Part shown: piece after piece, positions 60,440-63,976 of the stretch
Layout of the letters: each line of letters starts with the position of its first letter
Position numbering within the stretch: the stretch's first letter is position 1
Sequence record: PQ330092
Source of the DNA: Escherichia phage JP4
Length of the DNA stretch: 64,000 bases
Direction: 5' to 3' (one strand)
The notes under the pieces: model-generated
Databases searched by the model: none
Seen by the model: the letters and a program-made list of their open reading frames with translations, nothing else
What the model was told of the DNA's origin: nothing
Translations under genes and position numbers: made by a program

Positions 60440-60467
60440 TTGCACCGTACTGATAAAAGCGTATAAT
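60440..60467 (+). promoter_or_regulatory. early-type promoter with conserved 5' stem-loop
   Basis: aaagtacTTGCAC-16-TATAATgttttacatc, then hairpin agcgggaa-cac-ttcccgct at 60481-60499. Confidence 0.6.
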
Positions 60468-60522
60468 GTTTTACATCGAGAGCGGGAACACTTCCCGCTA
60501 CACATTAAGAGAGATTAAAACG

Positions 60523-60885
60523 ATGGCGACTCAAATCAATAAAATCATGCTTAACCTGGTAAACTTCCGCGAAGAGATGAAAGGTCTTCCGGCTGAAACT
60601 GTAAAAATTCACATTGCAGCTTATCGGGAACTTATTGCAATGTTGCCGCTTAAGCGTGAACAATACGCCGCTACTTTGATGCTTGATTCAATGATCCATA
60701 TAATGATCTCAAATGATTTAACGATGGTTTATCAGTACATGGGCGAAAATTTCGCGGTGTGTAGTAAGCCAGTACCAGGGATGGCAACTACTGAGGAATT
60801 GCACGGTTTAAATTTAAAGCAAGATGCATGGGATAATATGCCTCGTTTCCTGGTATGGGCTGACAGTGGCAAAATTTACAAATAA
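60523..60885 (+). CDS. hypothetical protein
   Basis: ATG 60523 (MATQINKIML..) with agagag SD; track start 60466 lies inside the -10 box. Confidence 0.55.
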   Translation: MATQINKIMLNLVNFREEMKGLPAETVKIHIAAYRELIAMLPLKREQYAATLMLDSMIHIMISNDLTMVYQYMGENFAVCSKPVPGMATTEELHGLNLKQDAWDNMPRFLVWADSGKIYK

Positions 60886-60899
60886 GTTTAATAAAGTAC

Positions 60900-60927
60900 T
60901 TGCAAACTAAGTTTAAAAGCGTATAAT
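60900..60927 (+). promoter_or_regulatory. early-type promoter with conserved 5' stem-loop
   Basis: TTGCAA-16-TATAAT, then hairpin gtggggaa-tag-ttccccac at 60940-60958. Confidence 0.6.
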
Positions 60928-60977
60928 GTTTTACATCAGGTGGGGAATAGTTCCCCACTATATAAGAGGATTAAAAA

Positions 60978-61217
60978 ATGGCTAAATCAAAAATGTTCTT
61001 AGGTCACAAAAACAAAACTCATTGGAATGTAAGCCTTTGGATTAATAACGATGAATCATTATACCGGTTGGCCCAGGACTTTATTAACGATAGCACTAAT
61101 CGCAATGATGCGGCCCGTCATATGATGTTATTTTTAGAACAGACTGGACAAGATAAAACACCGGACGGATTCAAATATAGCACTACTGCGATCCGTGCGG
61201 CGATGGTTGGAATGTAA
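60978..61217 (+). CDS. hypothetical protein
   Basis: 79-aa ORF with agagga SD. Confidence 0.55.
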   Translation: MAKSKMFLGHKNKTHWNVSLWINNDESLYRLAQDFINDSTNRNDAARHMMLFLEQTGQDKTPDGFKYSTTAIRAAMVGM

Positions 61218-61305
61218 TAGAATAGAATTTATTTAAAGTACTATTGCACGCTGATAGTACTTTATAATAGTGTTTTATTCATACACCAACGATAAGGGCA
61301 ACAGC

Positions 61306-61572
61306 ATGAATATTAAGTATTTTGCGACGCGTGAACAAGCTCGGATCGCCGCACGCCAGGACGGGGCAACGTTTAAAGATATGGGCGTACAATCGGAACG
61401 TGGTAAACGTTGGGCCATTGTAAAGCGTAGTACCGCCAGATCATTACAGTACTGGTTAGCGGCCTTAAAAAGTCCCGATAGTGTATCGCGTCGAGTGGTA
61501 GAAATAAAGCTCGACCGAAAGGGCAACCGCGTGACCGTGTACCGTACTAAAAAGATTGCAGTACTTGAATAA
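61306..61572 (+). CDS. hypothetical basic protein
   Basis: ATG 61306 (MNIKYFATREQ..) after aaggg SD; track start 61270 is a GTG. Confidence 0.5.
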   Translation: MNIKYFATREQARIAARQDGATFKDMGVQSERGKRWAIVKRSTARSLQYWLAALKSPDSVSRRVVEIKLDRKGNRVTVYRTKKIAVLE

Positions 61573-61579
61573 AAAGTAC

Positions 61580-61607
61580 TTGCAAACTATGTTTAAAGGC
61601 GTATAAT
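61580..61607 (+). promoter_or_regulatory. early-type promoter with conserved 5' stem-loop
   Basis: TTGCAA-16-TATAAT, then hairpin gcgggaa-ctc-ttcccgc at 61622-61638. Confidence 0.6.
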
Positions 61608-61659
61608 GTTTTACATCGAGAGCGGGAACTCTTCCCGCCTATAACCTGGAGTAATAAAA

Positions 61660-61890
61660 ATGACTAATATGTATATGACTGAAGTTAAAACCGTAAAAGA
61701 TACTACCACGAATAAAACTACTTACTTACAGCGGATCTGTGGTGTATGGCAACGTATCAGCAAATCAAAGTACTTTAAATTAACATCATATGCCAATCGT
61801 TCGGATTCATTCAGTACTGAAATAAAAGGTAATAAAGTACACCAATACGGCACTTATTATTATTATAGCCTGGACGCGATTGTAGTATAA
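61660..61890 (+). CDS. hypothetical protein
   Basis: 76-aa ORF with ggag SD. Confidence 0.55.
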   Translation: MTNMYMTEVKTVKDTTTNKTTYLQRICGVWQRISKSKYFKLTSYANRSDSFSTEIKGNKVHQYGTYYYYSLDAIVV

Positions 61891-62140
61891 GTAGTTTACA
61901 AATCTTTACAATTGCCAGTATTGACTTATTTTGTCAGTACTGGCATAATGTATTCATTGGCAGATAAGCCGTAGCCCATAGGGTGCGGAAGTGTATCTAT
62001 AGAAAAAGTAGTTTAGTACAGTTACAATTGTGCACCCGGTGGGTTAGCTGTTGTCATGGGGTATATTATACCAGTACTGGATAGTGCTGTCAATACTTTT
62101 TTTTTACTATTCAGTACTGAAAACTATTTTTAAAAAGTAC

Positions 62141-62168
62141 TTGCAAACTATGTTTAAAGGCGTATAAT
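62141..62168 (+). promoter_or_regulatory. early-type promoter with no ORF before the next promoter
   Basis: TTGCAA-16-TATAAT plus imperfect acggggaa..ttcccgt stem-loop; next promoter 91 nt downstream. Confidence 0.5.
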
Positions 62169-62258
62169 GTTTTACATCAGGACGGGGAACGAAATAAGTA
62201 ACTTCCCGTTAAGTAGCCCAGGAGTAAGGCACACGAAAAACTCCCCTGATAAAATAGT

Positions 62259-62286
62259 TTGACAAATGTTTTTAAAAGCGTATAAT
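62259..62286 (+). promoter_or_regulatory. sigma70-type promoter
   Basis: TTGACA-16-TATAAT, 33 nt upstream of ATG 62319. Confidence 0.6.
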
Positions 62287-62318
62287 ACTTACATCAACTA
62301 CTGAATGAGGGTTACAAA

Positions 62319-62930
62319 ATGAAAACTATCACTACTACTACTTTCGTTATGGATTTTTCTGAATTGAACGCAGAACAAAAAACGTCAGCTATCGAACTGG
62401 TTCGGGAACGTGAAAAAAACTCAAACGACAATTATTTTTCTGAAAGTGAAATTGAATACTATAAAGAAACAGTACTACCGGAATATGGCATTAATGACGC
62501 TGAAATACAATTCAGTGGTTTTTGGTCCCAGGGTGACGGTGCATCAATCAGTACTGACCACGTTGACGCAGTGAAGTTTTTACGCAAGGTAAGAGCATTA
62601 ACTAAGTATCGCTCAATCCGTCACCTGCTGAATGAAGATGATTTGGCGATGAGTGTAAAGCGTTCGCACTCCCACTACTCGCATGAGAATACTGTAAGCG
62701 GGTACATTGAATCGGCTTACACTGATTTAACCGCAAAACAAGAAACGTTAGTTAATGAGCTTGAGGAATTACTCACTGAAACTATTCGTGAATTGTCACG
62801 CAAGTTGTACCGTGATTTAGAGAATGCATATGAGGATCAATTCACTACTGAAAACATTACGGCACTGATTGAGGGTAACGAGTATCAATTCAATGTTATT
62901 GATGGCGTAGTGGAATCAATCGAATATTAA
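62319..62930 (+). CDS. hypothetical acidic protein
   Basis: 203-aa ORF with gaggg SD. Confidence 0.6.
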   Translation: MKTITTTTFVMDFSELNAEQKTSAIELVREREKNSNDNYFSESEIEYYKETVLPEYGINDAEIQFSGFWSQGDGASISTDHVDAVKFLRKVRALTKYRSIRHLLNEDDLAMSVKRSHSHYSHENTVSGYIESAYTDLTAKQETLVNELEELLTETIRELSRKLYRDLENAYEDQFTTENITALIEGNEYQFNVIDGVVESIEY

Positions 62931-62942
62931 TTTAAAAAGTAC

Positions 62943-62970
62943 TTGCAAACTAAGTTTAAAAGCGTATAAT
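62943..62970 (+). promoter_or_regulatory. early-type promoter with conserved 5' stem-loop
   Basis: TTGCAA-16-TATAAT, then hairpin agcgggaa-tag-ttcccgct at 62984-63002. Confidence 0.6.
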
Positions 62971-63022
62971 ACTTTATATCGAGAGCGGGAATAGTTCCCG
63001 CTACTAATGAGGAATACTACAA

Positions 63023-63187
63023 ATGAATACTTTTACCTTCGCTCAATTGAACGCCCTGGATGTATTGTCTGATGCTTTGCGGGATGCAACTGAAAGCGGT
63101 TTATTTGACAATGTTGACATTCACCCTGATGTAATTAATAATTTTTGTGATGCTATCGCAGAAGTACTGGAAGATCTAAAAAAATAA
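63023..63187 (+). CDS. hypothetical 54-aa acidic protein (absent from ORF track)
   Basis: MNTFTFAQLNALDVLSDALRDATESGLFDN..; ATG after gagga SD, directly behind promoter and stem-loop. Confidence 0.5.
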   Translation: MNTFTFAQLNALDVLSDALRDATESGLFDNVDIHPDVINNFCDAIAEVLEDLKK

Positions 63188-63197
63188 TAGAAAGTAC

Positions 63198-63225
63198 TTG
63201 CAATTAGTTTTTAGTACTGTATAAT
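63198..63225 (+). promoter_or_regulatory. early-type promoter with conserved 5' stem-loop
   Basis: TTGCAA-16-TATAAT, then hairpin gggagaa-atgg-ttctccc at 63239-63256. Confidence 0.6.
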
Positions 63226-63275
63226 AGTTTACATAGAGGGGAGAAATGGTTCTCCCTGGTAATGAGGAAAATAAA

Positions 63276-63497
63276 ATGGCAAATATCACTACTCTTTCCC
63301 AACTGGAAGCACTGGTTAAATCTATGCGGGAACATGCCGACAAAATCGGCGTACAAGATCCAGCCGTTTGCTTCTGCGACGAATTGAATGATGATACCCT
63401 GGTAATAGCAGAAGTCCAGGACGTTTCTAACTATTCCTCGCGTTACACTGGCGGCGTAGCAAATAAAGGTGACTTCTGTTTATACCTTACAAAATAA
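63276..63497 (+). CDS. hypothetical protein
   Basis: ATG 63276 (MANITTLSQ..) after gagga SD; track start 63246 lies in the stem-loop. Confidence 0.55.
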   Translation: MANITTLSQLEALVKSMREHADKIGVQDPAVCFCDELNDDTLVIAEVQDVSNYSSRYTGGVANKGDFCLYLTK

Positions 63498-63502
63498 CAA
63501 CG

Positions 63503-63531
63503 CGGGGAGATAATAACTCCCCGTTACTTTT
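63503..63531 (+). terminator. rho-independent terminator
   Basis: Stem cggggag/ctccccg, loop ataataa, then ttactttttc. Confidence 0.6.
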
Positions 63532-63665
63532 TCAGTACTGAATCATTTAATAGACGGATCTCGGCACCCGGTGGGTTAGTGACTGTTTCGTCTTGATGTA
63601 GTAATTATGCCAGTACTGGATGCACTTGTCAACAACTATTTTTCAAATACTTTTTATTAAAATAC

Positions 63666-63693
63666 TTGCTAATAGTTTTTAAACGCGTATAAT
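63666..63693 (+). promoter_or_regulatory. early-type promoter with conserved 5' stem-loop
   Basis: TTGCTA-16-TATAAT, then hairpin gggga-gcgg-ttcccc at 63704-63718. Confidence 0.55.
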
Positions 63694-63739
63694 GTTTTGC
63701 ATAGGGGAGCGGTTCCCCTGGTAACTAAGGAATAAGAAA

Positions 63740-63976
63740 ATGCTTGAACAAATCAAATCAACGTCTGCTAATGTAACGGGAACGGTATCACACTTTATTG
63801 GTGATGAATCGCGGGGCGTTCCCTATTGTGCTGTACATGTAAACACTGAGGGTAACTACTGGTTTACGGTTTACGGATCATATTCATTTGGACGGCCAGG
63901 GCATCAAAAAATTCTGGATAAAGTACAGCCAACGGGTAAAAATATCACGGCTGAAATGTTTTATAAAAAATCATAA
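63740..63976 (+). CDS. hypothetical protein
   Basis: 78-aa ORF with aagga SD; another promoter-like TTGATA box begins at 63982. Confidence 0.55.
   Translation: MLEQIKSTSANVTGTVSHFIGDESRGVPYCAVHVNTEGNYWFTVYGSYSFGRPGHQKILDKVQPTGKNITAEMFYKKS

Follow-up and report, generated by a model that had tools for sequence, protein, structure and literature searches.

We describe a repeated promoter-hairpin cassette in Escherichia phage JP4, based on an analysis of 64,000 nucleotides (nt) of its sequence (record PQ330092; "the window" below means this whole stretch). Eight sigma-70-type promoters lie on the plus strand between positions 60440 and 63693, with a ninth at 63983 truncated by the window end, and seven of the eight are followed by a GC-rich hairpin of 7-9 bp that carries no T-run and begins 1-6 nt past the predicted transcript start. 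The stems keep their pairing through compensatory changes while their sequence is free to vary, and the same architecture recurs in phages of other lineages. The arrangement resembles the promoter-early stem-loop (PeSL) cassettes of T4-like phages. We infer, with middling confidence, that it is a mobile early-expression cassette of this type, its stem-loop having shifted into the leader, where it would act in RNA as a 5' stabiliser or insulator.

Promoters and leader hairpins of the array

All eight promoters combine a 16-bp spacer, a TATAAT -10 hexamer and a TTGCAA- or TTGACA-like -35 hexamer with an A-rich stretch immediately upstream, 'aaAGTAC' ('ttaaaaagtac'). Four of them (60900, 61580, 62141 and 62943) are copies of a single 28-mer, TTGCAAACTANGTTTAAANGCGTATAAT, with 0 mismatches, where shuffled sequences are expected to contain 0 copies. 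The remaining four have hexamers, spacing and the GTTTTACAT discriminator in common with these and differ in spacer sequence; the spacer of promoter 1, for instance, departs from the 28-mer consensus. An earlier sequence-only reading of this stretch had described at least eight near-identical promoters, each followed by a hairpin. Eight are indeed found, with common hexamers, spacing and discriminator, but near-identity in the strict sense is limited to the four 28-mer copies, and the promoter at 62259 has no hairpin, its leader being unstructured (-1.9 kcal/mol, z +0.25). The three stem variants quoted in that reading are all present in the window.

The window hairpins fold at between -10.2 and -14.2 kcal/mol, and comparison with dinucleotide shuffles puts their z-scores between -1.0 and -4.0 (Table 1). 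Hairpins were located with a hairpin-first scan; a loose promoter regular expression combined with energy cut-offs was dropped because about 15-20% of random 45-mers reach -9 kcal/mol. Hairpin 4 (62181-62210) is followed not by an open reading frame (ORF) but by promoter 5, and this tandem arrangement (62141 plus 62259) is also present in the related Escherichia phage fEgEco12. The cassette cut off by the window end has an fEgEco12 orthologue (position 5205) with the hairpin AGGGGGAG-CGG-TTCCCCCT. No Rfam family matches window positions 57500-64000 at E <= 1, and a scan for tRNA and tmRNA genes returned none.

Ahead of the ORF at 61306-61572 lies a promoter-like aaagtactaTTGCAC...TATAAT (within 61230-61310) with a spacer of only 13 bp and without a hairpin. 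A cassette that has decayed is the probable origin of this site, and read-through from promoter 60900 would then express the ORF.

Table 1. Promoters, hairpins and associated features of the array. SD, Shine-Dalgarno sequence; aa, amino acids; R1, covariance model of the cassette.
Feature	Position	Strand	-35 start/-10 end	Description	Energy (kcal/mol)	z	R1 score (bits)
Promoter 1	60434-60467	+	60440/60467	aAGTAC, -35 TTGCAC at 60440, 16-bp spacer, -10 TATAAT at 60462-60467; predicted +1 A at 60475
Hairpin 1	60481-60499	+		AGCGGGAA-CAC-TTCCCGCT; R1 match 60462-60511	-12.5	-3.96	61.7
ORF after hairpin 1	ATG 60523	+		SD GAGAG; 120 aa, phrog_7352
Promoter 2	60894-60927	+	60900/60927	exact 28-mer copy, TTGCAAACTAAGTTTAAAAGCGTATAAT
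Hairpin 2	60939-60959	+		GGTGGGGAA-TAG-TTCCCCACT; ATG 60978 (79 aa, DUF7249/phrog_871)	-14.2	-2.96	64.2
Promoter 3	61574-61607	+	61580/61607	exact 28-mer copy; -35 begins 7 nt past the stop of the previous ORF
Hairpin 3	61619-61640	+		(AG)AGCGGGAA-CTC-TTCCCGC(CT); ATG 61660 (76 aa, phrog_5293)	-12.0	-1.41	57.0
Promoter 4	62135-62168	+	62141/62168	exact 28-mer copy; first member of the tandem pair
Hairpin 4	62181-62210	+		irregular GACGGGGAAC...CTTCCCGTT, bulged, large loop	-10.2	-1.56	29.3
Promoter 5	62259-62286	+	62259/62286	TTGACA-16-TATAAT, 12/12 consensus matches; 26-nt leader to ATG 62319 (203-aa ORF, phrog_5162)
Promoter 6	62937-62970	+	62943/62970	exact 28-mer copy; left junction of a gene replacement in relatives
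Hairpin 6	62982-63005	+		(AG)AGCGGGAA-TAG-TTCCCGCT(ACT); ATG 63023 (54-aa ORF, no family)	-13.2	-3.09	60.8
Promoter 7	63192-63225	+	63198/63225	TTGCAATTAGTTTTTAGTACTGTATAAT; right junction of the same gene replacement (63003-63185)
Hairpin 7	63238-63257	+		GGGGAGAA-ATGG-TTCTCCCT; ATG 63276 (73 aa, phrog_33522)	-11.8	-2.50	43.1
Intrinsic terminator	63502-63532	+		GCGGGGAG-ATAATAA-CTCCCCGT plus TACTTTTT; called by the terminator scan at 63502-63524; behind ORF ending at 63497
Promoter 8	63660-63693	+	63666/63693	TTGCTAATAGTTTTTAAACGCGTATAAT
Hairpin 8	63702-63720	+		UAGGGGA-GCGGU-UCCCCUG, 7 pairs, 5-nt loop, from predicted +2	-10.3	-0.99	31.0
ORF after hairpin 8	ATG 63740	+		78 aa, phrog_9227
Next cassette start	63977-64000	+		aAGTAC TTGATAATAGTTTTTAGTA..., truncated by window end

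Stem covariation and census

Pairing in the stem was assessed on two alignments. The first, a seed of 16 cassettes with 3-nt loops, was made with MAFFT only and not fitted to structure. In it 95.3% of cells are paired and five of the eight pairs have changed on both sides (19 cells); not one of 500 shuffles attains its covariation score, and sliding the partner by 1-3 columns leaves 47-67% paired. A MAFFT alignment of all 44 cassettes placed hairpins with 3-nt and 4-nt loops out of register and was excluded from the pair counts. From the 16 seed cassettes we built a covariance model, R1, and searched 196 kb consisting of the window and relatives. R1 found 72 cassettes, 71 of them on the gene strand; its hits in the window are exactly the seven hairpin cassettes, with no match in the other 60 kb. 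The resulting alignment of 56 distinct sequences, biased towards structure by construction, is 96.4% paired, with six of the eight pairs changed on both sides (59 cells), a covariation score again reached by 0 of 500 shuffles, and slid controls at 53-82%. Covariation supporting the stem, on which the sequence-only reading depended, is thus found in both alignments, and the stem sequence itself is free. The loops are 3-5 nt long and unconserved (CAC, TAG, CTC, ATGG, ATGA, CGG, ACATC).

The hairpin accompanies most promoters of its class: about 25 of the roughly 35 strong promoters in the fEgEco12 terminal repeat have one in the leader. A scan of IMG/VR with a degenerate cassette pattern returned only six stretches, three of them from one 348,532-bp contig. 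Within the window, one more promoter with a leader hairpin stands at 29279-29360, where TTGACAAACACATTCCGTACTATATAAT is followed by GGGGATGA-ACTTC-TCATCCC and then by SD and ATG. This site lies outside the terminal repeat, so the architecture is not confined to the repeat.

Position of the hairpin in the predicted transcript

The base 8 nt past the -10 hexamer is an A in 51 of 51 distinct cassettes, usually preceded by C, and this A is the predicted transcript start. With that start the hairpin lies inside its own transcript, 0-6 unpaired nt from the 5' end (4 or fewer in 33 of 49 cassettes, 5-6 in 16 of 49). For three window cassettes the predicted transcript begins AUCGAGAG, and its first 8 nt, ATCGAGAG, are those at +1 to +8 of the T7 A1 transcript; the A1 sequence used for this comparison is a 100% match to T7 462-517 and likewise has a 7-nt discriminator. 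The literature that we found on RaK2-like, rV5-like and phAPEC8-like phages offers generic promoter lists only and no mapping of transcription start sites.

The hairpin keeps its register with the promoter. Distances to the loop centre are 21.2 +/- 1.3 nt when taken from the -10 hexamer and 30.4 +/- 2.5 nt when taken from the ATG, the smaller standard deviation being that measured from the promoter, and the earlier claim of a fixed hairpin position holds. The stem ends about 13-24 nt (about 19) upstream of the start codon. The 5' edge of the ribosome-binding region would lie roughly where the hairpin ends, some 19 nt before the ATG.

Evidence for an RNA-level signal

Across 59 distinct hairpins the T-run that follows never exceeds 3, and the next 8 nt never hold more than three T; a terminator scan of the array called no leader hairpin. 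The leader hairpins do not have the form of an intrinsic terminator, a GC-rich hairpin directly followed by a U-tract, which argues against a terminator or attenuator role. By contrast, the scan did call one strong terminator-like site in the array, at 63502-63524 (Table 1). The predicted location of each hairpin in its own transcript is likewise hard to reconcile with a terminator role. An RNase III site was rejected as well, the stems having only 7-10 bp; a stem of 8 bp is too short for the substrate requirements of that enzyme.

At stem positions 1-7 of 42 unique hairpins we counted 269 Watson-Crick pairs, 13 G.U pairs, 4 A.C mismatches and 8 other mismatches. G.U is neutral only in the sense RNA, so its excess over A.C (13 versus 4) is modest evidence for a constraint at the RNA level. 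The stems also have a strict polarity, with a G- or purine-rich 5' arm and 158 GC against 11 CG pairs at stem positions 3-7. Judging by the initial transcribed regions of T7 A1 and T5 N25, purine-rich early transcribed sequence may be favoured at very strong promoters, and the C-rich arm could then be its added partner. The earlier suggestion of a shared RNA-level signal is carried part of the way by structure, position and covariation, and an RNA-level signal is favoured over a terminator or a DNA site by the G.U excess, by the missing T-run and by the fact that the hairpin stays with its ORF when genes are swapped between relatives (below).

Location in the terminal repeat

Window positions 60000-64000 align over their full length with fEgEco12 1219-5223, in the first 5 kb of that genome, at 97.5% identity, and with more than 12 other 350-380 kb coliphages of the 121Q/PBECO4 group at 91-97.5% identity and 75-100% query coverage. 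By these alignments the window comes from a 121Q/PBECO4-like jumbo coliphage of the genus Asteriusvirus. The fEgEco12 genome is linear with direct terminal repeats of 20,993 bp, as established with PhageTerm and restriction mapping (PMC13070987). Its position 1, the mapped physical end, aligns with window 58792. The promoter-hairpin array thus lies 1.6-5 kb inside the left terminal repeat, and the window spans the junction between the unique right part and the start of the repeat of about 21 kb.

The first 21 kb of fEgEco12 hold about 55 small ORFs on a single strand, mostly monocistronic, nearly all annotated as hypothetical and most of them separated by gaps of 70-100 nt. For most ORFs of the array the stop codon is followed after 6-14 nt by the next -35 hexamer, with no terminator between. 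No two of the eight ORFs downstream of the array promoters are assigned to the same PHROG, where one is assigned at all; every one is of unknown function, and only one carries a Pfam domain of unknown function (DUF). Because these ORFs fall in different PHROGs, the repeated cassette is not a by-product of gene duplication, and we ruled out an artefact of that kind.

The first promoter past the genome end, at window 59157-59230, is TTGACA-16-TATAAT with 12/12 consensus matches. It is followed by a hairpin of 15 pairs (-14.2 kcal/mol) and no ORF, and may produce a non-coding transcript.

Distribution and exchange of cassettes among phages

The same architecture with other stems is found in the terminal repeat of the Klebsiella jumbo phage fENko-Kae01 (GGGGGAA/TTCCCCC), in phAPEC8 (Phapecoctavirus; GGGCGGCA/TGCCGCC) and in JLBYU50 (Justusliebigvirus; GGCGGGAAA/TTTCCCGCC), and at least one site is present in Yersinia phage fHe-Yen9-03. 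Two existing records label such hairpins differently: that of phAPEC8 lists hairpin 20-mers as 'putative promoter determined with PHIRE' (556-575, 937-956, 1787-1806 and 3202-3221), and that of G17 annotates the leader hairpin at 4466-4485 as an ARNold terminator. Both labels are probably misassignments.

Promoters and hairpins reassort, with as many as four hairpins recorded for one promoter 28-mer and as many as four promoters for one hairpin. The window segment 63003-63185, which holds the module of the 54-aa ORF, is replaced by other ORFs in Ecwhy_1 (1.0 kb) and G17 (0.9 kb). The three sequences are identical through ...TATAATACTTTATATCGAG, differ from the hairpin on and rejoin at the next promoter, which sets the left junction between the initial transcribed ATCGAG and the hairpin and the right junction at the following promoter. 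Divergence that starts with the hairpin, between promoters that are identical, means that the hairpin moves with the ORF and that the promoters are the shared homology. Over larger distances, the window ORF at 61660-61890 has 93% protein identity to a gene of JLBYU50 and the ORF at 60978-61217 has 70%; in the 141-kb JLBYU50 genome these two genes are adjacent, each behind a promoter-hairpin cassette of its own and in an order unlike that of the window. These comparisons show modules of hairpin, SD and ORF exchanged between promoters, between related phages and between subfamilies, with the near-identical promoters acting as portable homology, a model already put forward for the PeSL cassettes of T4-like phages. 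The pattern described by the sequence-only reading is real, although its location in a terminal repeat, its PeSL precedent and its shuffling across lineages had been missed.

Comparison with known systems

PeSL cassettes have been described in the T4-like phages RB49/phi1, PST/T4 and nt-1/KVP40 (Arbiol et al. 2010, PMC2839356; Comeau et al. 2014, PMC4122927). Cassettes of a promoter plus a stem-loop that shuffle ORFans are thus already known (PMC2839356, PMC4122927), and the leader-located form is a variant of them and not a new kind of element. The two share an AT-rich upstream region, a strong sigma-70 promoter, a G-run/C-run stem-loop, and SD and ATG. Stable stems with a G-run followed by a C-run are represented here by GGGGAGAA/TTCTCCCC and AGCGGGAA/TTCCCGCT, and the polarity of the RB49 stem-loops is the same, with a G-rich 5' arm. 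PeSLs are intergenic and precede small ORFans in a plastic region, like the eight unrelated small ORFs in the terminal repeat. In both cases the motif marks the limits of insertions, deletions or replacements that distinguish close relatives, and the portable homology comes from promoter identity.

The differences concern geometry and host lineage. In RB49, whose sequence we read directly, the stem-loops lie between or over the -35 and -10 hexamers, upstream of the start, and the leaders are unstructured; those stem-loops have been shown to be terminator-like. Here the stem-loop occupies +1/+7 to about +25 of the predicted transcript and has no U-tract. The phage also possesses PeSL-type promoters in which a hairpin and T-run overlap the -35 hexamer (aaaaGGGaTTGACTccggtcAGTCCCtTTTGCTATTAT), and the leader hairpin is a positional class distinct from this classical geometry. 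The phages concerned are Asteriusvirus, a Klebsiella jumbo phage and Stephanstirmvirinae, none of them T4-like. In the literature we found no PeSL-type description outside T4-like phages, nor a leader version in RaK2-like or rV5/phAPEC8-like phages.

Stem-loops at the 5' terminus reportedly stabilise E. coli mRNAs (the work of Emory 1992, Bouvet and Belasco 1992, Arnold 1998, and Bricker and Belasco 1999). The ompA hp1 and papA stabilisers studied in the Belasco laboratory resemble the leader hairpins in being short, stable and a few nt from the 5' end (in our case the predicted one), in leaving the ribosome-binding site accessible, and in depending on structure over sequence. Unlike the dozens of phage leaders considered here, which are known from sequence, they belong to single chromosomal genes with measured half-lives, and the 5-6 unpaired 5' nt in about one third of our leaders would weaken the classical effect. 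The four studies named above are cited in a review (PMC3997798).

The phage early regions offer further parallels. The sigma-70 promoters T7 A1 and T5 PN25 likewise lie at the leading genome end, come close to consensus, serve host-takeover genes and have a purine-rich initial transcribed region, but T7 A1 to A3 drive one long operon processed by RNase III, whereas here each small gene has its own promoter and hairpin. The terminal redundancy of SPO1 and the first-step-transfer DNA of T5 share with the array a long direct repeat, dense small genes of unknown function, strong host-type promoters and an inward reading direction; they belong to different phage families, and their takeover modules are not known to carry a conserved leader hairpin. 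The lambda nut site is similar in having a short, GC-rich, promoter-proximal transcript hairpin, boxB. That hairpin has a conserved purine-rich pentaloop read by N together with boxA, in contrast to the unconserved loops of 3-5 nt here, and apart from the promoter we found no boxA-like element or conserved flanking box at the cassettes.

Proposed mechanism and alternatives

We propose that each small gene of this terminal-repeat 'host-takeover' array would be driven by its own strong promoter and the host sigma-70 RNA polymerase. In the 7-10 bp hairpin, the 5' arm would come from the purine-rich start of the transcript (AUCGAGAG.., AUCAAGGGGAG..) and be closed by the pyrimidine-rich 3' arm. 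Capping the 5' end in this way may limit 5'-end-dependent attack by RppH and RNase E, and the hairpin may also insulate an open, A-rich ribosome-binding site from its own short leader or from RNA reading through from the preceding cassette. We count such read-through as upstream context because the next -35 follows most stops so closely, with no terminator between. The outcome would be uniformly high, context-independent early expression.

Several observations weigh against this proposal. About 8-10 promoters of the same array have no hairpin, which is thus not obligatory. Classical 5'-end protection requires about 4 or fewer unpaired nt, so that it would be weak in the one third of cassettes that have 5-6. 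Three of the seven window hairpins have modest z-scores (-1.0 to -1.6), the asymmetry between G.U and A.C is based on 17 cells, and the start site is a prediction from sequence. The G-then-C polarity, moreover, exceeds what pairing needs and could reflect a sequence-specific partner or common descent.

In the original PeSL model the stem-loop is an attenuator or terminator that damps transcription from the upstream cassette and so prevents build-up along the array. We consider this unlikely for the leader hairpins, even though an RB49 PeSL stem-loop inserted ahead of lacZ, behind a strong promoter, lowered expression as much as rrnB T1 did (PMC2839356), most array ORFs have no other terminator before the next -35, and ARNold called the G17 hairpin. 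All 59 hairpins lack a U-tract and are missed by the terminator scan, and a stop placed downstream of the hairpin's own promoter would also halt its own transcript. Where termination is needed the phage uses a canonical T-run terminator (63502-63532), and it separately keeps PeSL-type promoters with a hairpin and T-run over the -35 hexamer. The geometry of RB49 also differs, with the stem-loop inside the promoter and the T-rich -10 hexamer as its tail. A by-product of promoter strength would require no role in decay: a purine- or G-rich start would aid promoter escape, and the C-rich arm would neutralise it by countering R-loops or SD-like GGAG. The identity of the first 8 nt with the T7 A1 transcript, the constantly purine-rich 5' arm and the SD-like GGAG/GAGG within 5' arms all fit. 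Yet this account, which we regard as very unlikely to suffice, explains the polarity and not a perfectly paired partner kept at a fixed distance, and the hairpin-less promoters of the array (62259) combine near-consensus hexamers with leaders that are not G-rich. It and the stabiliser-insulator proposal are not mutually exclusive.

The hairpin might instead be a class tag by which an RNA-binding protein or RNase, of phage or host origin, recognises early mRNAs, allowing joint switch-off, processing or a translation boost. Its fixed position, its presence on most but not all early promoters, and a polarity and frequent GAA/TTC stem top kept beyond the need for pairing would suit such a tag. Loops and stems that vary freely within a genome and between lineages argue against sequence-specific recognition, no candidate factor was identified, and RNase III is disfavoured by stem length; we hold this explanation to be improbable. 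A DNA-level element, with the palindrome serving as a recombination signal, cruciform or protein site that drives integron-like cassette exchange, strikes us as the faintest prospect. Replacement junctions do adjoin the hairpin, cassettes are exchanged across phage subfamilies, and the PeSL authors speculated that GGGG...CCCC is targeted by a recombination protein (PMC2839356). However, 45-60 bp of identical promoter on both sides suffices for homologous recombination, and the arms covary instead of conserving sequence, with G.T tolerated over A.C (13 versus 4). That 71 of 72 matches are co-oriented with genes is a weaker objection, R1 including the asymmetric promoter (-10, discriminator and flank). 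More boldly, and with only a little less doubt than we attach to the by-product account, the hairpin could be an address label, either for an RNA-binding protein or RNase that switches the takeover class or for a structure-specific recombinase that moves the modules, and so the core of cassette exchange across families.

Other repeated elements in the window

A palindromic octamer, CAGTACTG, occurs 52 times in the whole window against about 0.8 expected (for example at 14626, 59171, 59855, 61935 and 63533); for AGTACT the count is 233 with 22 expected, and for TTCAGTACTGAA it is 6 with 0.01 expected. The octamer sites are spread across the window, many away from recognisable promoters and others intergenic, and are densest at 58700-60400 near the genome end. 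The motif is often found within promoter spacers (CAGTACTGTATAAT) or immediately 5' of the -35 hexamer, and resembles a site for protein binding or modification at the DNA level.

A second motif, CCCAYNGGGTG, lies in ORF-free intergenic units at 59882-59892 (minus strand), 61975-61985 (plus), 62033-62043 (minus) and 63565-63575 (minus), four in the window against 0.08 expected and 23 across the window and relatives, in three jumbo-phage genera. Each unit sits about 25 nt downstream of its own sigma-70-like promoter, and two of them are convergent and overlapping at 61921-62093. The GGG can pair with the CCC or take part in a G.U-rich hairpin, GGGUGC-NNNN-GUGUAUCU, that is 92% paired with many G.U/G.C alternations. 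The units have no Rfam match, and consensus folding gave only a 4-bp invariant hairpin without covariation; they are candidate small RNAs. A second promoter class, aaaaaGGGaTTGACTccggtcAGTCCCtTTTGCTATTAT, in which a terminator-like hairpin and T-run overlie the -35 in the classical PeSL geometry, drives such units, not ORFs; its sites include fEgEco12 9498, 13496, 16765 and 19517 and, in another relative (L004), 9073, 14039, 16175 and 17142.

About 20 degenerate 8-bp units (GGATGGCT / AGACGGCT / AAACGGCT) run through window 59538-59697, some 750-900 bp from the inferred physical end. This run may be an iteron-like array or one related to packaging or replication.

Implications

If the hairpin stabilises or insulates early mRNAs, the cassette is a compact natural part combining promoter and 5' untranslated region, available in dozens of sequence variants, and it would explain the uniform, immediate expression of about 25-50 unrelated small takeover genes in jumbo phages. 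The annotations of phAPEC8 (PHIRE promoter) and G17 (terminator) would be corrected by this analysis. The comparative data widen the PeSL idea beyond T4-like phages to Asteriusvirus, a Klebsiella jumbo phage and Stephanstirmvirinae, and extend it to the exchange of early-gene modules among unrelated coliphage lineages, a process that bears on the spread of anti-host and anti-defence genes.

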